In this document: one piece after another, positions 3,506-23,445 of the stretch
Position numbering within the stretch: the first letter of the stretch is position 1
How the letters are laid out: the number at the start of each line of letters is the position of its first letter
DNA from: Halomicronema hongdechloris C2206
Lineage (GTDB): Bacteria > Cyanobacteriota > Cyanobacteriia > Phormidesmidales > Phormidesmidaceae
DNA length: 32,000 nucleotides
Direction: 5' to 3'
Assembly (NCBI RefSeq): GCF_002075285.3
Contig: NZ_CP021983.2
Location: 3,150,001 to 3,182,000 of the forward strand
The notes under the pieces: model-generated
What the model was told of the DNA's origin: nothing
Database searches by the model: none
What the model saw: the letters and a program-made list of their open reading frames with translations, nothing else
Made by a program: the position numbers and the translations under genes

Positions 3506-3852
3506 TGGGGGCGGAGGGACTTGAACCCTCACGACCTTAACGGTCAACGGATTTTCATTCTCCTGCAGTTTTCACTGCTGCCAGTGGCACCAAGTCGTGG
3601 CCACGGTTTTGAGAATTGGACCCTCCCTTTACCCTCGGCTTGACGTTAGGGTAGCTCCCGTCGGGCCTCTGCACCTTCCGATGGCGAGACGACTGTCCAT
3701 CGGCTTGGCTCAGGATTGCCATGTCCAGGAGAATAGGCTGAAATCCTCACTGGAGGTAGGTTTCCCTGAGTTTGAGAGCGTTCACTTGGCAGATTTCTCC
3801 ACCAAGGCTCAGTTGTCTAAGTCCGTAGCGTCTACCATTCCGCCACGCCCCC
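3506..3852 (-). tRNA. trnL: tRNA-Leu(UAA) interrupted by a group I intron
   Basis: The minus-strand 5' exon (3852..3819) is GGGGGCGTGGCGGAATGGTAGACGCTACGGACTT and ends at U34. The 3' exon (3555..3506) is AAAATCCGTTGACCGTTAAGGTCGTGAGGGTTCAAGTCCCTCCGCCCCCA. The acceptor stem pairs GGGGGCG with CGCCCCC. The anticodon stem pairs ACGGA with TCCGT. There is a long variable arm (GACC/GGTC) and a T-arm GAGGG-TTCAAGT-CCCTC. The splice junction gives anticodon U|AA. CCA is not encoded. Confidence 0.93.
3556..3818 (-). ncRNA. group I self-splicing intron (263 nt) in the tRNA-Leu(UAA) anticodon loop
   Basis: The insert lies exactly between U34 and A35, the canonical site of the cyanobacterial/plastid trnL intron. 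It ends in G (..GGAGAATG|AAAATCC). It contains the conserved core stretch ..CAATCCTGAGCCAAGCC..GGTGCAGAG..CGACGGGAGCTACCCTAACGTCAAG.CGAGGGTAAAGGGAG.GTCCAATTCTCAAA... It has no internal ORF. Confidence 0.9.
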
Positions 3853-4058
3853 GTAGGCTTCACAGTGGGTAATTGTTCTCTGCAAAGCACCGTGGATATA
3901 TTGCACCACCAACTGTCGTTCGATGCAATACCTCTGTAGGAAACGTTGCGATCGCAAGTGGGTATCCCTTTAGAATGAGCCATAGGAGTACAGAGCGGCC
4001 GGTGCTGTTACAAATCGCCGCTCGCGTATCCTAGCGAATCATCCCCTAGTGAGGCTCT

Positions 4059-5669: not shown

Positions 5670-6452
5670 ATGACTTGCATAGATGGATAACTAAACAGCC
5701 ATGAGATCAGGGAGTAATAGATATTATTTATGCTGAGTGCCTACTACGTTAAACTTCCGTGCGAGTTACGCAGATAGAGTCATGGCGCTGTAAAGCTGAT
5801 TGGGCAGCTGTTGACAGGATTCCTGTCCTGAGATCGCATGCAAAAATTGATATTTTTGGGTCTGCCCCCTAGTGCATTTTTTTAAAAAAAGCGCTATGAG
5901 AATTCCGCATCATGGGGTAGTATTGAATGCGATCGAACTGACCGCGTCGACAATCAGGTGTGAGGAATAACGCTAATGACTAATCATCAGAATAATCGGT
6001 ACGTGCCCAGCGTCCGCCTAGACAGATTTCTTCGCGTCAATCATTGATCTGTTATCTGGCGCACTAGGGGCCTTCTGCCAACGGTATTGCACAGGCCTAG
6101 CCACAATTTATTCGAGCTAATTCATGAGAGCCTGTTGAGGTTGTCTGAATATAGCTTTTTTATGGGTTTTTCATACTGCCTTAGCTAACGTCCAGTGTCG
6201 TCAGATTCTGGATACTCGCTTGTGTTTGCCTCATTCTTGCATGCATGCAGTAAGTCATCTGCAAATTGTGATTTATAGATAGATATTTCTTCAATCAGTA
6301 GGAGTGTCCCTATCGTACAGGCGTCATGGTTAGCTGTGATATGCCTATCGCATTAAAAAGCGTCACTTGTTAGCTTTCTTTTGAGTAGACAGTCTGACCT
6401 TGGTTGCCACTAGACGATCGTCTCCATGTCACCTTTCTCTCTTGTTAGATAA
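5670..6452. promoter_or_regulatory. 783-bp AT-rich non-coding region upstream of the surface-protein operon (promoter/leader; elements unresolved)
   Basis: No ORF of 60 aa or more occurs on either strand. The region is visibly AT-rich compared with the flanking genes. It contains the palindromes TTTTTTTAAAAAAA (about 5877-5890) and TGCATGCATGCA (about 6238-6249). Confidence 0.5.
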
Positions 6453-7385
6453 GTGTTTAATCGTAAGCGACTATTCCGGTTCGTATGGATATTCGGGTTG
6501 TCACTCCTGGTAACCCTTTTCATGGGACATGTGCTGCAGCCTGTCTCGCCAGTGTCTGCACAAACAGTGATCGAGAATCAAGCCGGCGCCCAATTTGCAG
6601 ACGGCACCGGTAATACTCAAACCACAGAATCGAACGCTACGACACTTCAACAGGGCACTCAGGCAGCCGCTCTCAGAATTGTTAAGACGGCTGACCGCGC
6701 TGCTGCCGAACCAGGAGATGTGGTCGTTTACCAATTGGTTGTCACTAATGAGTCAGCCGTAGCGGCCACGCCAGTCACCATTACAGATCAACTTCCCTTG
6801 GGGTTGCAATTCATTGAAGACTCTGTCCGCGGCACTCCCAGTGATCCGACTTCTGTAAGTGTCTCCGGACGGCAAGTTACGTTTACGTTCCCCACCTTAA
6901 GCGCAGGTGAGAGTTTAACCATTGCCTACGGCGTCCTGTTAACGCCTGACTCCATTCGAGGCTCCGGTCGCAATGTTGCCCAGGCATCGGCTCCAGGCTT
7001 CACGCCAGTGACAGCGACGTTTCAAGTTGCCATTCGCCCGGGCATTCTATCCGACTGCGGCACCATCGTTGGTCGCGTCTTCGTCGATAAAAACTTCGAC
7101 GGGCAGCAACAGTCTGGCGAGCCTGGGGTTCCCAACGCCGTCATCTTTCTAGATGGTGGCAACCGCATCATTACAGATGCAGACGGCTTGTTTTCCTTGG
7201 CCAACGTTGTTTCCGGTAACCGGGTTGGCACCTTGGATCTCACTAGTTTGCCGGGGTATACCCTGGCACCCAACCTCTACCACATCTCTGAGAATAGCCA
7301 ATCCCGTCTGGTGCGACTAGCTCCAGGGGGACTGGCCCGCATGAACTTCGCTGTCACACCGACCTTTGGGGAGGGTCAGCCCTAA
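6453..7385 (+). CDS. secreted DUF11-domain + SdrD-B-like (CnaB-type fold) protein
   Basis: A signal peptide is present (MFNRKRLFRFVWIFGLSLLVTLF...VSA|QT). A DUF11-type module reads LRIVKTADRAAAEPGDVVVYQLVVTNES...TITDQLPLGLQF. An SdrD-B-like block reads GRVFVDKNFDGQQQSGEPGVPNAVIFLDGGNRIITDADGLFSLANV. The start is GTG. The stop TAA overlaps the next gene's ATG (TAATG). Confidence 0.8.
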   Translation: MFNRKRLFRFVWIFGLSLLVTLFMGHVLQPVSPVSAQTVIENQAGAQFADGTGNTQTTESNATTLQQGTQAAALRIVKTADRAAAEPGDVVVYQLVVTNESAVAATPVTITDQLPLGLQFIEDSVRGTPSDPTSVSVSGRQVTFTFPTLSAGESLTIAYGVLLTPDSIRGSGRNVAQASAPGFTPVTATFQVAIRPGILSDCGTIVGRVFVDKNFDGQQQSGEPGVPNAVIFLDGGNRIITDADGLFSLANVVSGNRVGTLDLTSLPGYTLAPNLYHISENSQSRLVRLAPGGLARMNFAVTPTFGEGQP

Positions 7386-10300
7386 TGTTTGCACTACCTA
7401 TTTATCGCTCCTGGCCACTCTTGGCTGTCTTACTCAGTTGGAGTGCTATTGCTACTCCGGCAGAAGCCGATACCCATGGCGATGAAGCTGCTCCTGCTGA
7501 CTCAGCAGTTGCGCTGGATAGCATGCTGGCGGTGACAGAAATGCCCCTAGGTGTTGCCGATAGTCAGCAGTCACTTGCCCAGCGGCAGGATTCCCAACCG
7601 CTTACTCCCGATGCCATACCGACAAATAGGCCGAGGAGGACCCAGTCGCCCCCCCTACTGCCGGCTCCAGGGCGCTCGATGGAGTCGTCAGTAGGGGTGC
7701 CGACAGAGGAAAAGTTAGTGCCTCATCCCCTCGAGCCCGCTGATTTGTTGCCCCGACCAGGGGAACCTCGGTTGACCCTGAGGCCAGCTGAAGACAGCTT
7801 TATTCACGCTGACAACCGGTCTACCCTCCTGTTGGAGGGCGAAGTTCTTGAGGTCGATGGTACACCTATCACCCACGATGTGGTAGTAACCCTAACGACT
7901 ACGGCGGGAGAATTTGTCGGCGCAGATTATGACCCCGATCGCCCCGGATTTCAGGTATTAGCTCGCCAAGGTACTTATCAGGCTCGGCTGCGCTCTGGCC
8001 TGGAAGCCCAATCGGTGCGGGTGCGGGCCGCGGTTAGTGGCATAGACGCCCGGGGTCTGGATCCGGAGGCCGTGAATGAACCCTATCCTACTTTGGAGGC
8101 CTTCAGTCAAGTTTCCTTTATCACCAATCTACGGCCCTCTCTATTTTCTGGTGTCGTCGATTTTCGCATCGGTCCAGGGGGGGCAGATTTTTGGGATAGC
8201 TTCCGAGAATTTTTGCCCCCAGACGACCCTGATGACGTCGATGTTGACTTGGGCGTGGCCCTGTTTGGCACCTTTCCCCTGGGAGAATGGCAGTTTACTG
8301 GAGCCTATAACAGCGAGCGGCCTCTGAATGAGCGCTGCGATGGTAATAACGAGCTCTTCCGGGACGATCAATTTTGTGAGCAGCGGTATCCGGTCTATGG
8401 CGACAGTTCCACCAACGACTATCTGACCCCGTCTATCGATAGCGTGTATCTGCGGCTGCAACGGGATTCCGAGATCCTGGGTCGCGAGCCGGACTATGTG
8501 ATGTGGGGAGACTACCATACTCAAGAGCTGGCTAGAGCCTCTCAGGATTTCACTGCGATTACCCGGCAGCTACATGGCTTTAAGGGCAACTATAGCTGGG
8601 GACCGCTGCAGTTGACGGCCCTATATGCCAACAACCTGCGCCCCTTTCAACGAGACACCATCGTCCCCGATGGCACCAGCGGCTACTACTTCCTCTCCCG
8701 GCGGTTAGTGCTACCCGGTAGCGAAAATGTCTTCATCGAAACCGAAGAGTTAAACCGACCCGGTACTGTGGTAGAGCGGCAGCAACTCAGTCGTGGCGCT
8801 GATTACGAAATCGACTACGACCGCGGTACCTTACTATTCCGGCAACCCCTGTTGGCTACGGAGGTAGATCCTCTGGGTGTGACCCTAGTCAGGCGCATTG
8901 TGGTCACCTATCAGGTGGATGGTGAAGAAGCCCGGGGAGACCTCTTTGCCAGTCGGTTGCAATACAACTTCAATGGCCAGACTGATGCAGACGGCTGGAC
9001 TGGCGTAACCGTTCTCACCCAAGACCAAGGGATTCAAGACTTTTCCCTCTACGGAGTGGACCTAATGGTGCCCCTTGGTGATAAGGGACAACTGGTGGGA
9101 GAATTTGCCCACTCCGATTCCTCCTCGCCGGAGTTGGATGCTTCGGGGCAAGCCTACCGTCTAGAAGCTAGCGGTTCGCCCTTAGAGGGTCTTGATGCCC
9201 GGGCCTATTTCCGTTCCACTGACAGTGATTTCCGCAATAACAGCACCCTAAGTTTTCGACCAGGGCAAACTCGCTGGGGCGGTAGCTTTGATGCTCGTTT
9301 GGGTCCCGATACCCAAGTCAGGGCCCAGTTCGATCAAGAAACCAACTTTGGTCCCTCGTCCACGGTGTTGACCTCGGCAGATGCCTTGCTCTCCCCAGGG
9401 TTGGAGGCCTCCCAGGGACCACCGGTTAGCAATCGCCTTAATACCCTCAGCATTGGGGTACAGCAGCGCATTGCTCCTCTGACGTTGGGCCTTGATTGGG
9501 TGCATCGCTCTCGCGAAGACTGGGCGGCTGGTACGGACACCAGCAGTAGTCAATTAGTATCTCGTCTAAACTGGCCCCTGCTGCCCAACTTAACTTTTTT
9601 GGCCCAAAACGAGCTGAATGTTAGCTCCGAGCGCGATCCCCTCTACCCCACCCGTACCGTGGTGGGCCTGGAGTATGATGTCGAACCGGGGGTGAAACTA
9701 CGCTTAGCCCAACAATTTTTCTCTGGAGGGGAGGAACCAGGGTCAATCACTAGCCTAGATACCCTGTTTGACCACGAGCTCAGCGACAATACTAGCCTGA
9801 CTGGGCGCTATTCTCTGTTGGGAGGGTTCAATGGCATTACTGGCCAGGGCGCCATTGGCCTTAACCATCGGGTCACCTTGGCTCCAGGACTACGGGCTAA
9901 TTTTGCCCTAGAGCGCATCTTCAGCGATGGCTTCGAGGAAACGGGCAGTGGCCAGCGGTTTGCTCAGCCTTTTGCGGTAGGATCTGGAGCTTTTGCCTTG
10001 GGATTGCAGTCAGGTACGGCTTACTCTGTGGGGCTGGAATATACCGATAATCCGGCCTTTCAAGCCAGTGCCCGCATTGAGCATCGAGACTCTTCTGCCG
10101 GAGACAACACCGTTATCTCAGCCTCGGCAGCGGGGCGCATTACCCCGGCGCTGACCTCCCTATTTCGCTATCAGCACGCCAATTTTTCTAACCAGACCAT
10201 TGACCAACTGGGAGACTCGATCGATCTCAGGTTAGGCATGGCTTACCGCAACCCCAATAACGACAAGTTTAATGGACTGCTGAGCTATGAGTATCGCAAA

Positions 10301-10891
10301 AATCCCTCCACCACACCCTTAAGTATTCTGCAGGATGTCAGCAGTGAGTCCTCCGATCACACCCTGTCTCTGGAGGGGATATACGCGCCTAACTGGCAGT
10401 GGGAGTTTTACGGCAAATACGCCATGCGTTATAGCAATGCCACTATTGGCGGTAGCTTTGGCGATGACTTTTCGTTTAGTAACGCTATTCACCTAGCCCA
10501 ACTGCGGGCATCCTATCGCTTTGCCTACCACTGGGATGTCTTAGGGGAAGTGCGCTGGATTGGTCAACCAGCTGCCAATTTTAATGAGATTGGCACCGCC
10601 ATTGAATTGGGGTATTACTTAACGCCAGATCTGCGCATTGGTGTGGGCTATAGCTTTGGTCGGGCCGATGATGATTCCTTTGGCGGCAGTGGCGCCCGTA
10701 GTGCTGGTGGTCCCTATCTGGGCATATCGATGAAGGTAAATCAACTGTTTGATGGCTTTGGAGTGCAACCCACTGCCCCAGCTCAACAGGAAGAGTCTTA
10801 TGTTGATACGACTCAACCCCCAGACAATGAGCTTCCTGATGACGACAATTCTGAGGATCTGTCCACTGAACCAGGAGGCACATCCCGGTGA
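7385..10891 (+). CDS. large predicted outer-membrane protein: signal peptide, Pro-rich linker, Ig-like (Big_1-type) domain, extended beta-barrel region, acidic tail
   Basis: The signal peptide reads ...LLSWSAIATPAEA|D. GGAGG lies about 10 nt upstream of the ATG. An Ig-like block at aa ~134-219 reads ADNRSTLLLEGEVLEVDGTPITHDVVVTLTTTAGEF...VRVRAAV. The C-terminal ~600 aa show repeated amphipathic beta-hairpins with aromatic girdles (TAYSVGLEYTD, SLFRYQHANF, LLSYEYRKN, WEFYGKYAMRYS, LRASYRFAYHWDVLGEVRW, IELGYYLTPDLRIGVGYSFG). I recognise no specific family. Confidence 0.75.
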   Translation: MFALPIYRSWPLLAVLLSWSAIATPAEADTHGDEAAPADSAVALDSMLAVTEMPLGVADSQQSLAQRQDSQPLTPDAIPTNRPRRTQSPPLLPAPGRSMESSVGVPTEEKLVPHPLEPADLLPRPGEPRLTLRPAEDSFIHADNRSTLLLEGEVLEVDGTPITHDVVVTLTTTAGEFVGADYDPDRPGFQVLARQGTYQARLRSGLEAQSVRVRAAVSGIDARGLDPEAVNEPYPTLEAFSQVSFITNLRPSLFSGVVDFRIGPGGADFWDSFREFLPPDDPDDVDVDLGVALFGTFPLGEWQFTGAYNSERPLNERCDGNNELFRDDQFCEQRYPVYGDSSTNDYLTPSIDSVYLRLQRDSEILGREPDYVMWGDYHTQELARASQDFTAITRQLHGFKGNYSWGPLQLTALYANNLRPFQRDTIVPDGTSGYYFLSRRLVLPGSENVFIETEELNRPGTVVERQQLSRGADYEIDYDRGTLLFRQPLLATEVDPLGVTLVRRIVVTYQVDGEEARGDLFASRLQYNFNGQTDADGWTGVTVLTQDQGIQDFSLYGVDLMVPLGDKGQLVGEFAHSDSSSPELDASGQAYRLEASGSPLEGLDARAYFRSTDSDFRNNSTLSFRPGQTRWGGSFDARLGPDTQVRAQFDQETNFGPSSTVLTSADALLSPGLEASQGPPVSNRLNTLSIGVQQRIAPLTLGLDWVHRSREDWAAGTDTSSSQLVSRLNWPLLPNLTFLAQNELNVSSERDPLYPTRTVVGLEYDVEPGVKLRLAQQFFSGGEEPGSITSLDTLFDHELSDNTSLTGRYSLLGGFNGITGQGAIGLNHRVTLAPGLRANFALERIFSDGFEETGSGQRFAQPFAVGSGAFALGLQSGTAYSVGLEYTDNPAFQASARIEHRDSSAGDNTVISASAAGRITPALTSLFRYQHANFSNQTIDQLGDSIDLRLGMAYRNPNNDKFNGLLSYEYRKNPSTTPLSILQDVSSESSDHTLSLEGIYAPNWQWEFYGKYAMRYSNATIGGSFGDDFSFSNAIHLAQLRASYRFAYHWDVLGEVRWIGQPAANFNEIGTAIELGYYLTPDLRIGVGYSFGRADDDSFGGSGARSAGGPYLGISMKVNQLFDGFGVQPTAPAQQEESYVDTTQPPDNELPDDDNSEDLSTEPGGTSR

Positions 10892-12966
10892 TTAGACCCC
10901 TACGATCGCAAGCAATGTTTCATCCTGGGCTATTAGTGTTGGCCGGAACCATGACCCTAGGACTGGCGACGTCGGTATCGTCAGCAGATGTGACCGCCTC
11001 TGCCTATCGGATTACGGTCAACAGTGCTCTCGATGGCTCCGTTGCTGCCGATGTGGAGTTGACTCTGCGAGAAGCCATCTTGCTGGCGAATCATGAGTTG
11101 TCGCTAGAAGATCTGAGCCAGGTGGAGCGAGGGCTGGTTACCCCGATCACGGCGCCCGGGTCAATTATCGAGTTTGAGTTGCCTAGCGATGACAGGGTGA
11201 TTGAGCTGGTAGATTTATTGCCGTCAATTGCCACAGCCGATGTTGTTATCGATGGCACCACCCAGCCCGGATACGGTGAGACAGTCTCTGCCGTTGACAA
11301 TATCCCAACACCTGGAGTCAGTATCACGGCAGCTCCGGGAGAGGAGGTTTTCCGCGGGCTCACGATTACCGCGGATAGCGTCACTGTGCGGGGGATGAGT
11401 CTCTACGGATTCAGAGCTCAACATCGAGCGACCCAGACTACACCGCCGGCGGATATTTTCATCAGTAATGCGCCGCCCCCAGCCGATGCCAGCCCAGCGT
11501 CACCGCCAGTGAGCTTCTTTCAGTTTCAAGATCCGGCGTTGGCCCCTCAAGATGTGGTGATTGAGCTGAACTGGCTGGGGATAACGCCCGATGAGTCAAT
11601 TCCCGAGCATCGCTCTGCCTTTGGGGTATCGGTATTTAATGGGGTCGATACGGTGGTGCGGCAAAACCGGATTCAGCACCACCAGGGCAGCGGCGTGATC
11701 ACGGCGGTGCGGGCCCAGGGGCTACGGCTCACGGAAAATGTCATCCTGGGCAATGGCGTGGCTGGGATGCCGGATGCGGTGCGTCTGGAAGGTCAGATTG
11801 AGGGCACTGTGGTTACAGGCAACCTGATCTGTGGCAACGATGGCAGCGGTCTGTTTTTATTCAAGCCGGAGGGCGCCAGTCTGATTCAGGGGAATGATAT
11901 TCGCTTCAATGGTCGTCGCTTTGAGCGGGCAGCCGTGTATCTCATGGGCCGGGGCCATCAGGTGTTAGAGAATACCATCGGCTATCAACCGGGACCGGGG
12001 GTGGCGATTAGCGCCTTTCCCAGAAGCGATCGCAACCTGATTCGCCATAACCGCTTCACCCATTTAGACGGTCTCAGCATCGACCTAGGTGCCGATGACA
12101 ATACTGGTGTGCGGGACTTCCAGCAGGCCGATGGTCCTAATCCTCCCCGGAACTCCTACAACCGCCGTCTGGATACGGCCAATGGCGCCATTAATGCGCC
12201 TGGGTTTGACCAGTATGAGTTTGGGACAGACACCGAGACAACGCTGGTGACAGGCAACGCTGATCCAGGCAGTGAAGTTGACATTTATCAGGTGGTCGAA
12301 GGTGGCGGTCCCTACAGTCCTCTGGATACGCCCCTGACGACAGTGACTGCCGATGAGCAAGGGCGCTTCCAACTGAGCTGGGAGAAACCAGAGGGGACCT
12401 GGCTCAGTGCCATTGCCAGCGACCCCCTCTATGGCACCTCAGAACCCTCGCCAGTGGTCAAAGTGCTGGGCAGCGAGGGCACGGTGCCGGAACGTAGCCC
12501 TCAACTTCCCTATACAGCTAGCTGCCTGCCACCGGCAGTGGCCGCCGAACCGCCGCCCCCAGAACCGCTGCAGTTGCGGGTGCCCCGTAACATTCATTTT
12601 GCGCTGGACCGCTCCAATATTAGCCCCGAGAGTGCCGTCATCCTCGACCAAATTGTCGCAGTGATGCAGCAATACTCCTTTCTGGTGATCGAACTGCGGG
12701 GCCATACCGACCCTCGAGCCAGTGCTGCCTATAACCAGGCCCTCAGCGAGCGCCGGGCTCTAGCCGCCCGGGAGTATCTGCTGCGGCAGGGGATTGCCCC
12801 GGAGCGGCTGCGGATTTTGCCTTTGGGAGAAAGCCAACGCGCCACCAGCGGCAACACCCGCCTCGACTATGCCCGCGATCGCAGGGTAGAGTTCATCTTC
12901 CTCGATACCCGCGGCCTTGAAATTATCTTTGAGGCTCAAGAGAGCGATCTACAGATAGAACCCTAA
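10888..12966 (+). CDS. secreted right-handed beta-helix (CSLREA-type N-terminus) protein with C-terminal OmpA-like peptidoglycan-binding domain
   Basis: The GTG start overlaps the upstream stop (GTGA). AGGAGG lies 9 nt upstream, and an alternative ATG lies at 10915. A signal peptide is present. The LTLREAILLAN motif is CSLREA-like. PbH1-type repeats read NRIQHH.GSGV.., NVILGNG.., GNLICGNDGSGLF, GNDIRFNG. The OmpA_C block reads IHFALDRSNISPES...LRGHTDPRASAAYNQALSERRALAAREYL...RDRRVEFIF. Confidence 0.85.
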   Translation: MIRPLRSQAMFHPGLLVLAGTMTLGLATSVSSADVTASAYRITVNSALDGSVAADVELTLREAILLANHELSLEDLSQVERGLVTPITAPGSIIEFELPSDDRVIELVDLLPSIATADVVIDGTTQPGYGETVSAVDNIPTPGVSITAAPGEEVFRGLTITADSVTVRGMSLYGFRAQHRATQTTPPADIFISNAPPPADASPASPPVSFFQFQDPALAPQDVVIELNWLGITPDESIPEHRSAFGVSVFNGVDTVVRQNRIQHHQGSGVITAVRAQGLRLTENVILGNGVAGMPDAVRLEGQIEGTVVTGNLICGNDGSGLFLFKPEGASLIQGNDIRFNGRRFERAAVYLMGRGHQVLENTIGYQPGPGVAISAFPRSDRNLIRHNRFTHLDGLSIDLGADDNTGVRDFQQADGPNPPRNSYNRRLDTANGAINAPGFDQYEFGTDTETTLVTGNADPGSEVDIYQVVEGGGPYSPLDTPLTTVTADEQGRFQLSWEKPEGTWLSAIASDPLYGTSEPSPVVKVLGSEGTVPERSPQLPYTASCLPPAVAAEPPPPEPLQLRVPRNIHFALDRSNISPESAVILDQIVAVMQQYSFLVIELRGHTDPRASAAYNQALSERRALAAREYLLRQGIAPERLRILPLGESQRATSGNTRLDYARDRRVEFIFLDTRGLEIIFEAQESDLQIEP

Positions 12967-13020
12967 GATTGCTCCGTTAGGGGCAACGGCCAGTCCAGCT
13001 GATTTGCGTAGAACTAAGAT

Positions 13021-15954
13021 ATGAAGCGTTTTCAGGACATTTTAAGCTCTCGCCTATCCCTGCCGCAGCCTGGCTGCCGCTCCTCTGTCACCGGTTGGGG
13101 AGCGGCGTTGGCTGGTGCGATCGCAACGGGTTTGCTCTCTCCCCAATCCGCATCCGCTGCCACCTTAGACTGGGGGACCTTCAACTGGACAGCACCGGCT
13201 CCAGACCCCCCCCCCATTACCCAGGTCTTTCCCACCCCCATCGGTGACCCTGCCACCATCAATGGCGTCAAGCTGCGGTTTACCTGGACCGGAGCCACCG
13301 ATGACTTTACCGTACTCAGTGATGCCGCCAGCCCTTTGACAGGTGGCTTGGGAGCCGGAAACAATCTAAACATTCAATTCGATCCCGATACCGTTGCCGA
13401 AACCGTCAACCTCACCATTGAATACCTAGACGACGCGGGTAACCCCATACCAGTCGAAGGGGTCCGCCTGATCGTGATTGACATCGACCGTGATGATTTA
13501 GGTGGTTGGCAGGATCAGGTTACCTTAGACGGTTCCCTCGGCGGCACAAACGTACTACCAACCATCTCCGATGCCACTAATCCTCCCCCAGCACCACCTA
13601 CTACTACTCCCGGCATCACAAATGCACTAACTGTCGATATTGCGGGTAATGTCGCCACAGGCGTGTACCCCCCTGCGACAACTGATGAAGCACAGAATGA
13701 TACTGCAGACGGTAACATCGTTGCCGACTACGCTTCGGCTGTTGATCAAACAACTCTAGTTTATGGCAACGGTCCTGACTCACCAGCCGATCCAGCCAAC
13801 CACGGTATCGGCCTCTTCAATGTATTTTTCCAACCTGCCATCATTGGGGTGGCCAAACAGGCCGGCACGCCCACCCAAAACCCTGATGGCACCTTCACGA
13901 TTCCCTACACCGTTGTAGTGGAAAACCTGGGAGAAGTTGCTCTTGACGACGTACAGGTAACCGAGAACCTAACTGGCACCTTTGCCGCCACCAATGGATT
14001 TACTGTCTCCAACCCTCGCATCGTGGCCTCGCCAGGGGGCTTCGGCGGTAGCATTAACGGTGGTTTCAACGGCAATACCAGCACCACCCTCCTAGCAGGC
14101 TCAGCCGCCGCCCGCACCCTCGCGGTTGGCGACACCCTGACCCTGGCCTTCGATGTCACCGTTACTCCCGGAGCTGGAGCCGGCGGCTATGGTCCTTTCA
14201 ATAACAACGTGACGGCTACGGGCCAAAGTCCCAGTGGTGCCCCCGTTACCGATGAGTCAGACGACGGTGCCGACCCCGATCCCGACGGCAATGGCAGCCC
14301 CACCGAAAATGACCCCACTGTGGTGAACCTGCCTGCAATTGGGGTGGCCAAGCGGGTGATCGATATTCAGGATGTCGGCGGCACCCCAAATCCTGACGAC
14401 CTCGACATTACCTACGAGGTGGTGGTGGAAAACTTCGGCAATGAGCCCCTAGACAATGTGCAATTGGTGGAAGATTTGATTGATCCCACCACCGGCAATC
14501 CCACCTTCGGGGCTGGCAACTTCACCATCGCTGCCGGACCCACGGTGACGGCTGGTACCCTGACCGCCAATGGTGGCTTTAATGGAACCACCGATACCAA
14601 CTTGCTGGATGCGGCTAACAGTACCTTGGCCGTCGGGGCCAGTGGCACGGTGCAAATTACTGTGCGAGTGACAGACAGCAACAGTTCTCCGCCATTGCCA
14701 GCAGCACCTCCAGCCATCTATCGTAACCAGGTCAATGCCAGTGGTGTCGGTCGCACCAGTGGCGGTAACGTCTCAGACACCTCGGATAACGGTGCCGATG
14801 CCGATGAAGACGGGGATGGCAACCCCGCCAACAATAGTACGCCCACTCCCGTGCGCCTGCCTCCCACGCCAGCCATCGGCACTTCTAAACGAGTGGTGTC
14901 AACGACAGCCGCCCCTACCGGGGCCTTTGGCGGTGATACGATCCGCGTCGTCTACGAGATCGTCGTCGAAAACATTGGCGGCGAAACCCTCGACACGGTG
15001 CAGCTCAGTGAAGACCTAACCCCTACCTTTGGGGCAGGCAGCTTTCAAGTCCAGAACTTGCAACAAACCGCCGGAGCCAACACAATTACCGTCAATGGTG
15101 GTTTCGACGGCGGTGCTACCCCTGAACTCCTGGTGGCAGCTACCAGCACCCTAGATATTGGGGAGAGTGCCACACTGCAATTGACCGTAGATGTCGATCA
15201 AACCTCCACTACATTGCCCACCCCTCTCCCCGGTCCCTTCGAGAATCAGGTAGAAGCGACGGCCCAGGGCACTTTCACCAACACTCCAGTTGACGACCTC
15301 TCCAACAATGGTACCCAAGCCGCTATCGATCCCAATGGCAATGCCAATGCCAATGAGCCGGACGAGAATACCCCCACCCCAGTATTATTTGTCGGAGATT
15401 TACAATTGGTGAAGCGGATTACCAATGTCTTCCGCAATGGGACTCCTCTCTCTGCTGCCGAGATTGGCGGTGATCCCAGTGCCGTCATCAATGGTCCCGG
15501 CGCCGACGACGATGATCTGATTGCCGCTAGTGGCGGCCAGTTACCCGCGGGGTTACTCTCGGTGCCCACTAATCTGCTCTCAGGGGATGAAGTAGAATAC
15601 ACCATTTACTTCTTCAATGATGGCGCCCTAGCCGTCAATGACGTGCAACTCTGCGATGAGTTAGAGCCTCCCAGCATCTTCGTGCCAGGGAGTTTAGCGC
15701 TCTCGGCTCCAGTGGCCCTACCAGGTCCCCTAGGGGCCTTCGGTGCCAGTGGATTACTAGACACTCGCAATCCCCTAGCTCCCTTAGAGCCCTCCTGTAT
15801 CAATGCTCCCGGCGCCTTTCCCGTTGGCCCACCCGGCCCCACTGATACCACCATTGGCGTCGGGGCTGGCGGCGGTGTCATCCTAGGAGGCACGGGCTTC
15901 ACCGTAGATTCTAGTAACGTCGGGGCACTGCGCTTTAGAATTACACTGCCCTAG
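13021..15954 (+). CDS. secreted multi-DUF11-repeat surface protein (977 aa)
   Basis: A signal peptide is present (..GAIATGLLSPQSASA|AT). The N-terminal ~225 aa domain is unassigned. Four tandem DUF11-type modules follow, each with the motifs (I/L)G(V/T)(A/S)K.., Y.(V/I)VVEN.G...L..VQ..E(N/D)L and N.V.A(T/S). Acidic D.SD(D/N)GAD.D.DG(N/D)G linkers separate the modules. I saw no LPXTG, PEP-CTERM or obvious T9SS CTD. Confidence 0.85.
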   Translation: MKRFQDILSSRLSLPQPGCRSSVTGWGAALAGAIATGLLSPQSASAATLDWGTFNWTAPAPDPPPITQVFPTPIGDPATINGVKLRFTWTGATDDFTVLSDAASPLTGGLGAGNNLNIQFDPDTVAETVNLTIEYLDDAGNPIPVEGVRLIVIDIDRDDLGGWQDQVTLDGSLGGTNVLPTISDATNPPPAPPTTTPGITNALTVDIAGNVATGVYPPATTDEAQNDTADGNIVADYASAVDQTTLVYGNGPDSPADPANHGIGLFNVFFQPAIIGVAKQAGTPTQNPDGTFTIPYTVVVENLGEVALDDVQVTENLTGTFAATNGFTVSNPRIVASPGGFGGSINGGFNGNTSTTLLAGSAAARTLAVGDTLTLAFDVTVTPGAGAGGYGPFNNNVTATGQSPSGAPVTDESDDGADPDPDGNGSPTENDPTVVNLPAIGVAKRVIDIQDVGGTPNPDDLDITYEVVVENFGNEPLDNVQLVEDLIDPTTGNPTFGAGNFTIAAGPTVTAGTLTANGGFNGTTDTNLLDAANSTLAVGASGTVQITVRVTDSNSSPPLPAAPPAIYRNQVNASGVGRTSGGNVSDTSDNGADADEDGDGNPANNSTPTPVRLPPTPAIGTSKRVVSTTAAPTGAFGGDTIRVVYEIVVENIGGETLDTVQLSEDLTPTFGAGSFQVQNLQQTAGANTITVNGGFDGGATPELLVAATSTLDIGESATLQLTVDVDQTSTTLPTPLPGPFENQVEATAQGTFTNTPVDDLSNNGTQAAIDPNGNANANEPDENTPTPVLFVGDLQLVKRITNVFRNGTPLSAAEIGGDPSAVINGPGADDDDLIAASGGQLPAGLLSVPTNLLSGDEVEYTIYFFNDGALAVNDVQLCDELEPPSIFVPGSLALSAPVALPGPLGAFGASGLLDTRNPLAPLEPSCINAPGAFPVGPPGPTDTTIGVGAGGGVILGGTGFTVDSSNVGALRFRITLP
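13837..15390 (+). repeat. three tandem ~165-180-aa DUF11-type coding modules (a fourth, divergent module follows to about 15750)
   Basis: The module boundaries are aa 273-438, 439-617 and 618-790. The conserved Lys sits at K279, K444, K623 and K798. Confidence 0.75.
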
Positions 15955-16200: not shown

Positions 16201-17394
16201 ATGGGAGCATCCAATACCCTGATATGTGGCTATTATGGCCATTACAACTGGGGCGATGAGGCCATGTTGACGGGGTTGCTACGGCTACTACGCCCCTACT
16301 GTCCCCATGTCACTGTCTATTCAGCGGCCCCTGATAATACCCAGGCTCGTCATGGGGTGAAGACCCTTTCGACAGTGCCGCCGCGTCGGCGTTTGCAAGC
16401 TTGGCGTCAGCAATGGCAGCATACTCGAGCGATGCTGACCCATCGCTGTTTTGTCTTGGGCGGAGGCGATCTACTGCGGGATAGCCCCACCCATGAGGTA
16501 GCAGGGGTATGGTTGGCTCCTCTGCAGCAGGCAGTGCAGCTGGGACATACCACCTTGGTCTTGGGCATTAGCGTTGGCGATATTTGGAAAGCTGAGAGTC
16601 GACAGCAAATTCCTCGGGTGTTGAATCGGGTATCCCTGATCGCCGTGCGAGACCAGATATCGCGGCACAGGCTGATTGATTTAGGAGTGAGGCGACCGAT
16701 TCAGGTGATGCCCGATCTGGCTCTCCAGGCGCTGCCTCCGACTGCTATTCAGCAGCGGTCACAGTCCCGAGAATCTCCCCAAGTTGGCCTGTCTCTTCGG
16801 TCTGTGATGGGACGAGGTGCGATCGCACAGGATGCCTGCCAAGCTGACAGAGCTTTAACCCTAGATGCCCATCTCCAGCAGGTAATGGCCACCATTGCCG
16901 ACACGTTAATTGAACGCCACGGAGCCACCATTCATCTCGTGCCCTTTCAGGCTTATCCGGCTGAGTATCACAAGCGACATCGTCCTAGTGTAGACGACCA
17001 TGCCTTTGGCTTAGTCAGTCAGCAGCTTAGCCGCTACCCCGAACAATGGATTTGCCATCCCTACATTGCATCCCTAGACCAGCTGTTGACGATCCTGCAG
17101 TCCTTAGATCTGATGATTGGAACTCGACTGCACTCATTAATTTTGGCCGCAGGAAGTGGCGTACCGGCCATAGCCATCGAGTACGACCCCAAAGTGTCAG
17201 GCTTCATGGCAGCAATTGATCAGACTACCTATGTCCATCCCCTGGAAAACCTCAATACCACTGCCATTACGACCCAAGCAGAAGCTATCTTAACCCGTTG
17301 GCCTCAGGCCCATAGCGCGATTCTAACTGGCCTGGCTCAATACAATCGGGGTTGGCAGTCCCCAGTCTCCTCTCTGGAGGACTTACTAAGGTAA
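16201..17394 (+). CDS. polysaccharide pyruvyl transferase family protein (CsaB-like)
   Basis: The N-terminal motif GYYGHYNWGDEAMLTGLL is characteristic of PS_pyruv_trans/CsaB-type enzymes. The C-terminal region IGTRLHSLILAAGSGVPAIAIEYDPKV also fits the family. Confidence 0.7.
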   Translation: MGASNTLICGYYGHYNWGDEAMLTGLLRLLRPYCPHVTVYSAAPDNTQARHGVKTLSTVPPRRRLQAWRQQWQHTRAMLTHRCFVLGGGDLLRDSPTHEVAGVWLAPLQQAVQLGHTTLVLGISVGDIWKAESRQQIPRVLNRVSLIAVRDQISRHRLIDLGVRRPIQVMPDLALQALPPTAIQQRSQSRESPQVGLSLRSVMGRGAIAQDACQADRALTLDAHLQQVMATIADTLIERHGATIHLVPFQAYPAEYHKRHRPSVDDHAFGLVSQQLSRYPEQWICHPYIASLDQLLTILQSLDLMIGTRLHSLILAAGSGVPAIAIEYDPKVSGFMAAIDQTTYVHPLENLNTTAITTQAEAILTRWPQAHSAILTGLAQYNRGWQSPVSSLEDLLR

Positions 17395-17421
17395 TGACAG
17401 TGATCCATCAGGTGCATCGCC

Positions 17422-18351
17422 ATGACAACTCAGCCTATCTTCATCGTGGGCGTGCCTCGCTCAGGCACGACCCTCATGACCACCCTGCTATCTGCCCATG
17501 CTCGTGTTGCCATCTCTCCGGAAACCCATTTCTTAGATGAATGGTTACCACGCTACCAACATTGGTGTGCCCTTGAGCGAGCCGATCATTTCCAGCAATT
17601 CTGGCAGAATTGGAGCAGCAGTCAGCGATTTTCCTATTTCGGGGTTGATCCAGAGCAGGTGTTTCAACGTCTTCAAGCGCAGCCAGCAATCAACTTCAAA
17701 GTCATCTTCCAAAGTCTTTTAGAAGAGTATGCTATCAGCCAGGGAAAATCTCGCTGGGGCGAGAAAACCCCCATGCATTACCGCCATCTGCAGACCTTAC
17801 TAAACTGGTATCCCAATGCTCGAGTCATTTGGATGATACGAGATCCGCGGGCAACGGTGGCCTCGTTGTTACCACTAGCCTGGGCCAGTAATTCAGCCCG
17901 CAGCAATGCCCAACATTGGCTGGGCAGTCTACATTTGTTTGAGACCCGTTGGCGACGAGATCATCGAGTGCTGCTGGTGCGGTATGAAGATTTAGTCACT
18001 GTCCCAGAGTCAACCCTGGTTCAGGTCTGCAAATTTATCGGCGAAGTTTACGACCCTAGCATGATTACAAATCGCTCCGAGCAGACTTGCCCGGTCATTA
18101 ACCGCTGTAGTTGGGCTGAGAGACACCTGAAGCAGGCCCTACAGCCGATTAGTCAACAAGGTCTTCACAAATGGAAGCGACGACTCTCTCGGCGTCAGGT
18201 GGTCAATATTGAGTTGATTACTCGTTCAAAGCTAGAGACCTATGGTTATCAGTTAACTGTCCCGCCTTGGTTTTTAGCTAGTTGGCATTGGGCATCGACG
18301 ATGCGCTCTCGTCTACAGTTACTCAATCTCCATCAGATACTAGACATGTAA
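17422..18351 (+). CDS. sulfotransferase family protein
   Basis: The 5'-PSB loop is IFIVGVPRSGTTLM. The 3'-PB-like motif is VIWMIRDPRATVAS. The block VRYEDLV...KFIG is typical of PAPS-dependent sulfotransferases. Confidence 0.8.
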   Translation: MTTQPIFIVGVPRSGTTLMTTLLSAHARVAISPETHFLDEWLPRYQHWCALERADHFQQFWQNWSSSQRFSYFGVDPEQVFQRLQAQPAINFKVIFQSLLEEYAISQGKSRWGEKTPMHYRHLQTLLNWYPNARVIWMIRDPRATVASLLPLAWASNSARSNAQHWLGSLHLFETRWRRDHRVLLVRYEDLVTVPESTLVQVCKFIGEVYDPSMITNRSEQTCPVINRCSWAERHLKQALQPISQQGLHKWKRRLSRRQVVNIELITRSKLETYGYQLTVPPWFLASWHWASTMRSRLQLLNLHQILDM

Positions 18352-18496
18352 CCCCGAGCATACTAGCAGCTTGTTCGACAGGATTGCCCTAAGAGGATAT
18401 TTGGAAAGTACTCTGCAACCTTGCTCCAGACTGGATTCTGGCCAACAGAACCATACGCTCTAAAATGCCTACCTTACAGGCCTTTCAGCCGAGTTT

Positions 18497-19753
18497 TCAA
18501 ATGTCCTCTAAGGCCATGACTGATTTATAGATGGTTAAATGCTCCTCAAATATCTGGGCAATATGTAGTCGTCCCCTGAGGCGAGCTAGAGCTTGATCTT
18601 GGTGGACTGCTGACACAGCTTCAGAATCTTGCAGCTGAGCATTAATAGCCTTTGCTAGGGCTGTTGCCGTATAGGGAGTAAAGACTCTAATCGCTCCTGG
18701 TTCCAACTGGTTATAGGCCTCAATTTGAGGCCATTGAGAAGCCAGAATTGGCCGCCCTAAGGCGATCCAAGTAGATAATGACCCCGATGCTGCCATCTTC
18801 GAGAAGGGGCACAACGCTAAATCACTAGCCCACAGATAGCGAGCCAAGGTCTCATCGTCGAGGTAACCAGTAATCAGCAACTGTGATGTCACCCCTAGGT
18901 CTGCTGCTAGCTGTCGTAGTTCTTGCAAAAAGGCCTGATTTTCCGAAGTAGCCATGCCAGCGAAGATCAGCATGACAGTATCAGGGAGTTGGGCCAAGGC
19001 TTCAATAGCCAAGCGATGTCCCTTTCCTCGGGAAATAAACCCCTGCAGGGTTACAATTTGGCGATGGTTGAGGCCAAGTTGATCTTTAGCTGCTTGAGGA
19101 GATAGCCGTAGCACTGGCTCTTCCACGAAGTGGGGAATTACCTGAAGTTTCGAAATGCCATGAGCTCGGGAAGACGAATAAACAATATCTGCAGAATTGT
19201 GCCAATTTCTGCCGCAGATATACTGCAAATGCTGAGCTTCTTCCTGCGTGCAAACTAACACCCGATCACTCTGCTGTACCAGATGTAGCAGGGTTATGCT
19301 ATCTGGCAACCGCTGTTGCCACAGTTGCCGCAGCGTGCTGCGCAAAGCCAAGGATGGTGACTTAGCATAGCTCCGTTGCCGCTGATTTTCCTGCCATACC
19401 ATCTGCCCTAGCTGAGCCGGGGAGTATAACACCGTATCGATATCATGCATTGTGACAACTAGTGGAACAGCCAAGGACTGTAGAAATTGTCGCAGTCGTT
19501 GCCACTGTTGCCAGCCTCCTCCCCAGAGATATTTACTAAACTGCCCATGCACCACATTGCAAGTCGATAGTTTGTGACCAGCTTCCTTTAACTGGCAAGC
19601 ATCGGCATCAGGTGCCGTTAGCTTGACCTCTACTACTTGAATATCTAACTCACCGCGCTTTTTTCCCTGTTGAGCTAGCAAGCGACCATACCGGGTCACA
19701 CCACTCTCGTATTCTGAATTGGCATCCGTCGTCTGCAAAAAGCCAATTCTCAT
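18497..19753 (-). CDS. glycosyltransferase, GT-B fold (GT1/GT4-like)
   Basis: The C-terminal Glycos_transf_1-like region reads VTLQGFISRGKGHRLAIEAL...LIFAG...ITGYLDDE...SDLALCPF..SGSL..ALGRPILAS. The gap to the upstream GT gene is 9 nt. Confidence 0.65.
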   Translation of the reverse strand: MRIGFLQTTDANSEYESGVTRYGRLLAQQGKKRGELDIQVVEVKLTAPDADACQLKEAGHKLSTCNVVHGQFSKYLWGGGWQQWQRLRQFLQSLAVPLVVTMHDIDTVLYSPAQLGQMVWQENQRQRSYAKSPSLALRSTLRQLWQQRLPDSITLLHLVQQSDRVLVCTQEEAQHLQYICGRNWHNSADIVYSSSRAHGISKLQVIPHFVEEPVLRLSPQAAKDQLGLNHRQIVTLQGFISRGKGHRLAIEALAQLPDTVMLIFAGMATSENQAFLQELRQLAADLGVTSQLLITGYLDDETLARYLWASDLALCPFSKMAASGSLSTWIALGRPILASQWPQIEAYNQLEPGAIRVFTPYTATALAKAINAQLQDSEAVSAVHQDQALARLRGRLHIAQIFEEHLTIYKSVMALEDI

Positions 19754-19762
19754 GGCAATCTC

Positions 19763-21019: not shown

Positions 21020-21103
21020 CGTCTCAAACCCTGGAGTGACTGTTCATCTGTAAGTCCAGTATGCCCAGGAATGGGGGAGGTGTCTCCTGGAGCGGACTCA
21101 TGA

Positions 21104-22156: not shown

Positions 22157-22196
22157 GGTTAAACCTCATAAATCTGACTAATAGTTGCAACGTGAC

Positions 22197-23192: not shown

Positions 23193-23445
23193 GTTTAGCC
23201 GGGTAGATTCACGCTGTCGACGCAAGCAGACGGCACCCCATTTTCGATTATGGTTCCCAGGAAACCCAGACGGATCATTGGCCACAGCACTACCGTTATC
23301 CCCTGACGACTATTTTTTCACACTCGTTCCCCGTCAGCATAGCCTTTATGGAAATCGAATTTTGCGGTGAAGAGTTACTAGGTTGCTCAGCCAATAAAGG
23401 CCCTGTTCTGACTTGTATTCAAGTAATTTGTCGGTCACTGCTCAA

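Follow-up and report, generated by a model that had tools for sequence, protein, structure and literature searches.

The 32,000-nucleotide (nt) stretch of Halomicronema hongdechloris C2206 analysed here (NZ_CP021983.2, positions 3,150,001 to 3,182,000; hereafter the window, in whose own coordinates positions are given) contains four consecutive plus-strand genes, termed A to D, that encode two DUF11 proteins, a very large predicted beta-barrel protein and a beta-helix protein with a C-terminal OmpA-type domain. DUF11 domains have been renamed CLIPPER domains, and a Lys-Asp-Asn isopeptide bond has been demonstrated in them (PMC12617251). The interpretation developed below, to which a probability of about 0.5 is assigned, is that these genes specify a wall-clamped giant barrel through which DUF11 (CLIPPER) fibrils are exported and held.

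Organization of the A-D operon

An earlier note, drawn up from the letters of this DNA alone, had described four plus-strand genes with their sizes and junctions, and open reading frame (ORF) calls together with direct reading of the sequence reproduce that description exactly:

6453-7385, plus strand: gene A, 310 amino acids (aa), GTG start
7385-10891, plus strand: gene B, 1168 aa
10888-12966, plus strand: gene C, 692 aa, GTG start
13021-15954, plus strand: gene D, 977 aa

Genes A and B overlap by 1 nt (TAATG at 7383-7387), B and C share GTGA at 10888-10891 with AGGAGG (10873-10878) lying 9 nt 5', and C and D are separated by a gap of 54 nt (12967-13020). All four products open with positive charges followed by a hydrophobic segment and a site of the Ala-X-Ala type, and the AlphaFold2 models of A and B start with a helix; this pattern and these helices support the Sec-type signal peptides that the earlier note had assigned to every product. 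Its statement that the window lacks a periplasmic chaperone, a sortase and any T1SS, T2SS, T5SS or T9SS component agrees with the ORFs scanned. A Pfam scan of A-D and the 18 other window ORFs of at least 250 aa gave no match to usher, PapD-like chaperone, TpsB, autotransporter, SprA, type IX secretion system (T9SS) or sortase families, and neither the end of A (...TFGEGQP) nor that of D (...RFRITLP) is an LPXTG-type C-terminal signal.

Domain architecture of the four products

The features distinguished within A are as follows, with confidence given as the AlphaFold2 predicted local distance difference test (pLDDT):

6564-6656, plus strand: N-terminal motif of A (residues 38-68, VIENQAGAQF), short strands, pLDDT 59-85
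6672-7025, plus strand: CLIPPER (DUF11) domain of A (residues 74-191), pLDDT ~96
7050-7361, plus strand: SdrD_B / CarboxypepD_reg-like domain of A (residues 200-303), presumed barrel-docking module

The earlier description of A as a DUF11 plus SdrD-B-like protein stands for its first half, with DUF11 (PF01345) matched at 49.1 bits (cut-off 24.6) and TIGR01451 at 57.8 bits (cut-off 24); SdrD_B, at 24.5 bits, stays under its cut-off of 29.7. In Foldseek searches, the best match of the CLIPPER domain is 9IFR (E 7.7e-8, target-normalised template modelling (TM) score 0.69, root-mean-square deviation 3.4 Å), followed by Gram-positive shaft and basal pilins. Residues K78, D112 and N174, kept in 75-76 of 76 A orthologues, align with the triad of 9IFR (the Asn being one column off in the phmmer alignment) and are a candidate isopeptide triad. 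The most conserved part of A is its SdrD_B-like domain, which is nearly invariant, with most positions at least 95% conserved across the 76 orthologues; a hidden Markov model (HMM) of this domain matches the segment directly before the barrel in distant fused proteins. Its single cysteine, C202, is conserved in orthologues but not kept in Smithella P0271, the one fused protein from outside cyanobacteria that was compared.

Directly after the signal peptide, A carries the motif [IVL]xNx[AS]x.x[YF], whose N42 is conserved in at least 95% of orthologues. The motif occurs in 64 of 76 A proteins and in 52 of 56 long DUF11 proteins encoded upstream of A in other cyanobacteria, as well as in fused and upstream proteins of other phyla; it is absent from D-like proteins (0/72), small DUF11 proteins (0/53), B (0/81) and C (0/26), and other ORFs contain it in 3 of 478 cases. 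A free donor strand at the N-terminus of A finds no support in the model, in which AlphaFold2 packs the motif onto A itself, at pLDDT 59-85.

For B, the corresponding features are based largely on its AlphaFold2 model, which was built from 53 sequences (pLDDT 68.8; predicted TM score 0.64):

Residues 24-125 of B, plus strand: disordered Pro-rich segment (AlphaFold2); the N-terminal 100 residues are poorly conserved
7769-8035, plus strand: Ig-like domain of B (Big_1 / Invasin_D3-type; residues 129-217), presumed periplasmic, 7-8 strands, pLDDT ~80
8093-10735, plus strand: beta-barrel region of B (residues 237-1117), ~40 long strands with short loops (DSSP of the AlphaFold2 model)
8645-8839, plus strand: beta-sandwich insert of B (residues 421-485), six short strands between barrel strands
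10757-10888, plus strand: C-terminal tail of B (residues 1125-1168), disordered, with conserved motif G..QP.AP.QQ.ES

No Pfam or NCBIfam family is matched by B above its cut-off, and the weak Pfam matches at E ≤ 0.01 are DUF2490 and Invasin_D3 (21 bits, residues 136-222). The earlier note had proposed an Ig-like region followed by a giant barrel: the Ig-like domain and about 40 strands are present in the model, and Big_1 finds no match in B itself, where the weak Invasin_D3 match is all that was obtained. Big_1 is matched in homologues of B, in which Invasin_D3, Big_1 or GH2_C5 matches fall at the position of the Ig-like domain. The barrel wall is estimated from the model at 32-40 strands. The insert at residues 421-485, a candidate plug, is the most conserved stretch of the family (GxSGxYYL...GSE...RGxDYEIDYxxGTLLF) and is kept in a Smithella homologue. 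Across phyla, the last strand (GPYLGISMKVNQLF) keeps the pattern GPY[LF]K[LF]RFKF, a sequence that resembles the beta-signal recognized by the barrel assembly machinery (BAM).

No sequence relative of B was found in the PDB, even with a 53-sequence profile, and Foldseek searches of the PDB with the model returned generic large barrels only (Deinococcus SlpA, SprA, MtrB, TonB-dependent receptors, FimD and LptD), with TM scores of at most 0.20 when query-normalised and at most 0.35 when target-normalised. Covariation was measured as mutual information with average product correction in 316 homologues (effective number 158); neighbouring strands were detected with a mean z of ~2.4, and non-sequential couplings between strands 4-7, 6-32 and 9-32 suggest a less simple course than a plain meander for residues 285-511. 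Many homologues of B are named 'TonB-dependent receptor' and one 'OprO/OprP porin'. A TonB-dependent receptor or porin identity was rejected for B on the grounds that Plug and TonB_dep_Rec domains, a matching NCBIfam model and a PDB sequence relative are all missing and TM scores are low; B does not model as a known member of either class or as a polysaccharide exporter (TM at most ~0.35), any of which the earlier note had named as a refutation. B represents a new, uncharacterised family of outer-membrane barrels.

Two further observations concern B. Residues G1126, Q1128, P1132, Q1134, Q1135, E1137 and S1138 of its tail are near-invariant in cyanobacteria. In addition, C318 and C331 (window 8336-8377), which probably form a disulfide, are invariant and lie in a long low-confidence loop (residues 310-353) beside a YPVYGDSS... 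stretch that is among the most conserved of the barrel family.

The C-terminal modules of the remaining two products are located as follows:

12598-12876, plus strand: OmpA-like peptidoglycan-binding domain of C (residues 571-663), 60.4 bits against a cut-off of 27.2 (PF00691)
15400-15951, plus strand: C-terminal module of D (residues 794-977), terminal motif G[AF][IV]RFR[VT][RK][LV][PK], here GALRFRITLP

C consists of a right-handed beta-helix (Pfam Beta_helix at 33 bits, NosD), an Ig-like domain (weak Big_6) and the C-terminal OmpA domain, the beta-helix and the OmpA end being as the earlier note had described. CSLREA (TIGR04214), which it had listed for searching, remained below threshold (16.6 bits against a cut-off of 25), and none of the named OmpA-type NCBIfam models listed reached its whole-protein cut-off in C. 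A role of C as a peptidoglycan tether is supported, the OmpA module being the part that would matter.

D likewise has the predicted four tandem DUF11-type modules, which start at residues 275, 440, 619 and 794 (DUF7507 at 59.3 bits, DUF11 at 32.4 bits, TIGR01451 at 51.9 bits). A variable N-terminal head of ~220 aa is followed by three CLIPPER_2 modules that are 36-43% mutually identical and joined by DxDxDG-like linkers, and then by a divergent fourth DUF11 module. Across the D-like family, the C-terminal module and its terminal strand are conserved, the head is variable and the remainder has diverged; the Asn of the last strand of D is not conserved. Such C-terminal conservation would be expected if the C-terminus meets conserved machinery, and the module is a candidate attachment or sorting end.

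Conservation in cyanobacteria

More than 1500 close homologues of B were found, cyanobacterial ones being present in 457 species genomes, and an exhaustive search yielded 2096 representatives of the barrel family at E ≤ 0.001 (clustered at 50% identity). The closest relatives of B belong to Leptolyngbya/Nodosilinea-type genomes. The 80 best cyanobacterial loci were compared: in each of the 76 loci (the window and 75 others) that hold upstream DNA, B is immediately preceded by A, and of the 80 loci, 71 encode a D-like DUF11 protein and 26 encode C. Because the arrangement is conserved in hundreds of genomes, it cannot be attributed to chance. A and B are one functional unit and the only universal pair; C is not a universal member.

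Two gene orders can be distinguished. The Leptolyngbya-type order is A-B-C-D; the Nostocales-type order comprises a long DUF11 protein, a small DUF11 protein (~187 aa), A (~513 aa), B, sometimes C, and one to three long DUF11 proteins, with A and B overlapping by 4 nt. A plasmid of Synechococcus sp. NIES-970 has the Nostocales order, and in its B an OmpA domain follows the barrel, at the tail end of the protein. A conserved C-terminal strand is shared by D-like, small and upstream DUF11 proteins. The upstream long DUF11-cluster protein of Nostocales and Picosynechococcus (loci L045, 3847-6345, and L090, 3025-5757) matches DUF7925 (PF25546, E 5e-65) and has an N-terminal NxAxAxY motif and a conserved C-terminal strand, RTFTFRRTVN; it has no counterpart in the window.

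The co-occurrence outside this genome that the earlier note had set as a test is real for A and B (76/76), extends to D-like proteins (71/80) and, less often, to C (26/80), and reaches further phyla. Its view of the four genes as one functional cluster, with the DUF11 proteins as partners or cargo and C as a peptidoglycan tether, has gained support. As a fixed quartet, the set survives in part only: the A-B pair is universal, C is present in 26 of 80 loci with a beta-helix restricted to cyanobacteria, and OmpA domains are elsewhere fused to A-like or B-like proteins.

Fused homologues, other phyla and membrane topology

Distant representatives of the barrel family share 27-31% identity, are 1000-3650 aa long and have the barrel at their C-terminus. 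When HMMs of the two domains of A were applied to 150 representatives, exactly one adjacent DUF11+SdrD pair was found N-terminal of the barrel in 46 of them. The Pfam order in the fused proteins is DUF11 repeats, CarboxypepD_reg or SdrD_B, an Ig domain (Invasin_D3, Big_1 or GH2_C5) and the barrel, the disordered N-terminus of B corresponding to a linker. Since A and B form one polypeptide in these 46 representatives, A is best regarded as an obligatory partner of the barrel and not as a free tip subunit, one of the two roles (tip or anchor) that the earlier note had offered.

Named sources of these proteins include Smithella/Syntrophales, Lentisphaerae, Nitrospirota, Methylococcaceae, Sulfurovum and Gammaproteobacteria. 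Where the barrel gene of other phyla is separate, its upstream neighbour ends in a DUF11+SdrD pair, often with a 4-nt overlap, and an A-like/barrel pair occurs on plasmids of Sinorhizobium meliloti and Devosia (Alphaproteobacteria). On plasmid p4 of Acinetobacter haemolyticus, genes for small DUF11 proteins are followed by one for a fused A+B protein (2008 aa), one for an OmpA family protein (360 aa) and one for a further DUF11 protein (978 aa), an order that mirrors B-C-D of the window. Operons of other phyla contain 3-5 DUF11 proteins, among which the homologue of the small Nostoc protein recurs (138-190 aa; E 1e-11 to 1e-19); no PapD-like chaperone was found in the annotated operons, and the beta-helix of C had no match in these loci. 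The system that the earlier note had taken to be cyanobacterial spans at least six phyla or classes. In locus L087 (5270-11324), an A-like gene stops inside an OmpA domain (TGHTD...) that the barrel ORF resumes (NRRVEL...), and they are probably halves of a single gene interrupted by a frameshift or an assembly error; this gene would then encode a DUF11-SdrD-OmpA-barrel fusion.

The fusions also bear on topology. An OmpA domain precedes the barrel in 6 homologues and follows it in 15, and it is found at the C-terminus of A-like proteins in some homologous systems. With OmpA on either side of the barrel, both barrel termini are therefore periplasmic. One of the Pfam-scanned barrel homologues, P0190, has three SLH domains, which occur in no other of these homologues and not in A-D. 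In homologue P0233, an SdrD-like domain is placed between OmpA and the barrel, and the module matching the invariant C-terminal domain of A is therefore most likely periplasmic. Partner or attached DUF11 arrays, on the other hand, reach 2600-3360 aa or more, which would be too long for the periplasm.

Proposed mechanism and alternative explanations

DUF11 arrays are building blocks of surface fibrils and form extracellular filaments (PMC12617251; bioRxiv 10.1101/2025.08.19.671072); in methanogens, DUF11 proteins have been linked to aggregation. Given long arrays in these systems and filaments known elsewhere, we infer that the chain crosses the outer membrane via the barrel, N-terminal of an SdrD/OmpA base. 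In such a mechanism, BAM would insert B into the outer membrane as a giant barrel of ~32 strands or more whose N- and C-terminus both face the periplasm. A would be its fixed partner, with the SdrD_B-like domain docking at the periplasmic mouth beside the Ig-like domain of B and the isopeptide-type CLIPPER domain and N-terminal hairpin occupying or traversing the lumen. C would clamp the assembly to peptidoglycan through its OmpA domain, and D, with its head, stalk and conserved C-terminal module, would act as the distal adhesin that reaches the surface via the barrel and is held at the A-B base. The corresponding components of other phyla form one chain (DUF11 stalk, DUF11+SdrD_B, in some cases OmpA or SLH, Ig and barrel), which resembles a self-anchoring adhesin whose stalk exits through its own barrel while a wall-bound periplasmic stopper stays behind.

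A bolder and more tentative extension regards A-B as a hitherto unrecognised outer-membrane machine found across Gram-negative phyla, in effect a new class of secretion and pilus system. Its giant monomeric barrel, at or above the size of any solved single-chain barrel, might export folded, isopeptide-locked CLIPPER domains, with the fibre held by a peptidoglycan-clamped periplasmic stopper; multi-gene versions might assemble a DUF11 pilus without chaperone, usher homologue or sortase, possibly by strand donation or by spontaneous intermolecular isopeptide bonds. Complementarity of N-terminal and C-terminal motifs could then direct an ordered attachment of tip, shaft and base; AlphaFold2, as noted, folds the motif of A onto A.

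Several observations weigh against export of fibrils through a wall-clamped barrel. C is absent from most Nostocales loci and, where present there, lacks the OmpA domain, and searches of the window found neither the small DUF11 protein nor the upstream long one. The SdrD_B-like domain of A is poorly modelled (pLDDT 34-52) despite its conservation, and may fold only on its partner. The barrel model is itself only moderate in confidence (pLDDT 68.8), so that its strand number is a model-based estimate and its lumen size and plug are putative, and covariation in the 316 homologues did not detect closure between first and last strand (z = 0.5). The peptidoglycan-binding and SdrD-like modules beside the barrel are periplasmic, and a complex lying entirely in the periplasm is conceivable for the short A of cyanobacteria; surface exposure of the DUF11 parts, their passage through the lumen and the A-B and D-A contacts are what we infer beyond these data.

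A fairly unlikely alternative takes up this last point and places A, C, the N-terminal region of B and perhaps D in the periplasm. They would act as a tether or spacer between outer membrane and peptidoglycan of the kind provided by OmpM/SlpA, OmpA and Pal, in which isopeptide-locked Ig-like domains would serve as load-bearing spacers. It would account for the OmpA or SLH domains attached at both barrel ends and to A-like proteins, for the position of the SdrD-like domain of P0233 between OmpA and barrel, for Deinococcus SlpA, an SLH-plus-barrel tether, being the top Foldseek match of B, and for the single CLIPPER domain of the A in the window. However, DUF11 arrays of 2000-3400 aa would exceed 100 nm, far beyond the width of the periplasm, the variable head and conserved C-terminal end of D-like proteins form an adhesin layout, DUF11 arrays are documented as extracellular fibrils (PMC12617251; 10.1101/2025.08.19.671072), and the barrel is larger than a plain tether needs. 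A multi-subunit pilus appears distinctly unlikely. B would then act like an usher and polymerise DUF11 subunits in the order tip, shaft, base by donor strands, possibly locked by spontaneous isopeptide bonds between subunits, in the absence of chaperone and sortase; A would be the base, the shaft would consist of the long DUF11 protein encoded upstream, and the tip would be either D or the small DUF11 protein. Subunits of the Sulfolobus thread filament are reportedly joined by donor strands together with isopeptide bonds. This filament (PMC9715654) offers a precedent, and the N-terminal motif [IVL]xNxAx.x[YF] of A (64/76) and of the upstream long DUF11 proteins (52/56) resembles the Asn-bearing last CLIPPER strand. 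The conserved C-terminal strand of D-like, small and upstream proteins, the 3-5 DUF11 proteins per operon in other phyla, including the 138-190-aa homologues of the small Nostoc protein, and the usher-plug-like position of the beta-sandwich insert between barrel strands point in the same direction. Yet the motif of A packs on A in the AlphaFold2 model (pLDDT 59-85), the Asn in the last strand of D is not conserved, the scanned ORFs contain no usher or PapD-like family, the window has A and D only, and polymerisation would be superfluous for the many homologues that consist of one fused chain.

Two other explanations assign B to transport of small molecules or polysaccharide. Were B a divergent TonB-dependent receptor or porin, with A as an accessory protein as SusD is to SusC, the RefSeq names of its homologues ('TonB-dependent receptor', one 'OprO/OprP porin'), the CarboxypepD_reg-type domains before the barrel, as in SusC/Oar-type receptors, and the TonB-dependent receptors among its Foldseek matches would be explained. 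This uptake channel is very unlikely when set against the lack of Plug (PF07715) and TonB_dep_Rec (PF00593) in B and in the precomputed Pfam matches of its homologues and the lack of an NCBIfam model, TM scores to TonB-dependent receptors of 0.09-0.15 (query-normalised) and 0.15-0.27 (target-normalised) that are no better than those to other barrels, a profile of B that matches no PDB sequence, ~40 modelled strands versus 22, and obligatory partners that are adhesin-type DUF11 arrays and peptidoglycan-binding domains instead of substrate-binding lipoproteins. An extremely unlikely possibility is that the operon belongs to the adjacent exopolysaccharide cluster (16201-23285) with B as its export barrel: A-D adjoins those genes in the window, and C contains a beta-helix of the CASH type, which is often seen in proteins that bind or cleave carbohydrates. 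However, among 80 related loci the pyruvyl transferase is found in none and the sulfotransferase once, weakly and on the opposite strand, while trpA-A-B-C synteny recurs; Wza, Wzc, KpsD or other export families are matched neither in A-D nor in the 18 other ORFs, and the conserved partners are everywhere DUF11 proteins.

Relationship to known systems

By any defining component, the A-D system matches no known pathway. The usher-type or two-partner logic suggested in the earlier note is accordingly retained as an analogy, since no defining component of either pathway is present. Like chaperone-usher systems, it combines an outer-membrane barrel with several secreted Ig-like subunits and a base subunit that would stay with the barrel; the beta-sandwich insert of B is reminiscent of the usher plug, and FimD is among the Foldseek matches. 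It differs in lacking the Usher (PF00577), PapC_N, PapC_C and PapD families, in its TM score to FimD (at most 0.34), in having ~32-40 strands in B versus 24 in the usher, in subunits that appear to be complete CLIPPER domains, often in long tandem arrays, and in peptidoglycan-binding modules that are integral to the system.

With type V secretion, the fused homologues (46/150; not the window) share an N-terminal passenger and C-terminal barrel on one chain, an analogy of layout and not homology. Intimin and invasin consist of LysM, a barrel and a Big_1 passenger, and the A-D system resembles them in uniting a peptidoglycan-binding periplasmic domain, a barrel and Ig-like (Big_1/Invasin_D3-type) domains. 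In contrast to type V systems, B has about three times the 12 strands of their barrels, the Autotransporter, ShlB, POTRA and TPS (haemagglutination) families are missing from A-D, the passenger consists of CLIPPER domains, 2-5 genes often encode the parts separately, and the Ig-like domain presumably faces the periplasm.

In OmpM and in Deinococcus SlpA, which heads the Foldseek matches, a large barrel is likewise joined covalently to a domain that binds the wall from the periplasm, and P0190 has three SLH domains. OmpM and SlpA (SLH plus a barrel of 16-30 strands) have no sequence relationship to B, a TM score of ~0.2 and a coiled-coil stalk that B lacks, whereas B has an obligatory DUF11/SdrD partner. 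SprA (36 strands) and MtrCAB, which are among the top Foldseek matches, are comparable as very large barrels that pass (SprA) or enclose (MtrB around MtrA) folded protein. The A-D system differs from them in having no SprA family, T9SS C-terminal sorting domains (Por_Secre_tail/TIGR04183) or cytochromes, and in occurring in phyla without T9SS. LapA of Pseudomonas is a fibrillar adhesin that is threaded via an outer-membrane channel and held by a folded periplasmic 'stopper', and the concept of a threaded adhesin with a stopper is common to LapA/LapE and the mechanism proposed here. LapA, however, depends on type 1 secretion through a TolC-like trimer and has no Sec signal peptide, unlike A-D, which all have Sec-type signals, and B, whose channel would be a monomeric barrel.

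The closest domain-level parallels are the CLIPPER adhesins (Acinetobacter silvestris B9T28_05395, PDB 9IFR; PMC12617251) and the 'grappling hook' filaments (10.1101/2025.08.19.671072), with which the system has in common the domain family, the Lys-Asp-Asn triad and the head/stalk/OmpA-like 'anchor' arrangement. These reports concern fibre proteins only, whereas the window cluster adds a candidate conduit and anchor. They name no outer-membrane partner, and the word 'barrel' occurs 0 times in the text of PMC12617251.

Significance

DUF11/CLIPPER arrays are among the most widespread components of bacterial surface fibrils. The searched literature on such fibres in Gram-negative bacteria describes fibre proteins and an 'OmpA-like anchor', not how the outer membrane is crossed or how the fibre is fixed in it, and a description of the barrel or the operon was not found in this literature, which left most subscription journals outside its coverage. 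The A-D cluster, whose barrel family is always accompanied by, or joined in one chain to, a DUF11+SdrD module and wall-binding domains, offers a concrete, directly testable candidate for both steps. If the proposed mechanism is correct, it would constitute a hitherto undescribed type of machinery for outer-membrane export and anchoring whose barrel is about as large as any known, correct a systematic misannotation as 'TonB-dependent receptor', account for structures of adhesion and aggregation in mats of cyanobacteria, in rhizobia, in Acinetobacter and in syntrophic bacteria, and provide a new scaffold for surface display.

Flanking region and other genes of the window

One further feature directly adjoins the operon:

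5670-6452, plus strand: non-coding leader 5' of gene A, 783 nt, presumed promoter/5' region of the operon

This leader contains no ORF of at least 80 aa and no Rfam family, and scans of the region for promoters and terminators gave no signal above chance; no Rfam family lies within the A-D operon either. Neighbouring genes in the window, which mark the DNA as cyanobacterial, encode a DUF3007 protein, a phycobilisome-lyase HEAT protein, TrpA and LarC. In related genomes, trpA adjoins the operon in several loci and the exopolysaccharide genes are not kept beside it; a tie between A-D and these downstream genes was rejected, as they are conserved beside the operon in no related locus.

The exopolysaccharide genes themselves, at 16201-23285 and 30105-31214, encode a polysaccharide pyruvyl transferase, a sulfotransferase and five glycosyltransferases (GT1/GT4, GT2), a set that suggests a sulfated and pyruvylated product. 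A 558-aa protein encoded on the minus strand (23809-25485) combines an N-terminal extension of ~280 aa, which matches no family, with a C-terminal half that holds a domain of the class A beta-lactamase type (Beta-lactamase2, E 4.5e-67). No tRNA was found in the window by ARAGORN. A 510-aa ORF at 1253-2785 on the minus strand, which matches no Pfam family, shares ~180 nt with the 3' end of the larC-like gene (12-1433, plus strand) and may be a real gene, as it clusters with ORFs of two related loci. A complete group I catalytic intron lies at 3601-3828 on the minus strand (Rfam RF00028, 59.3 bits, E 8.5e-13), and the plus-strand ORF that covers it (3597-3872) is probably spurious.

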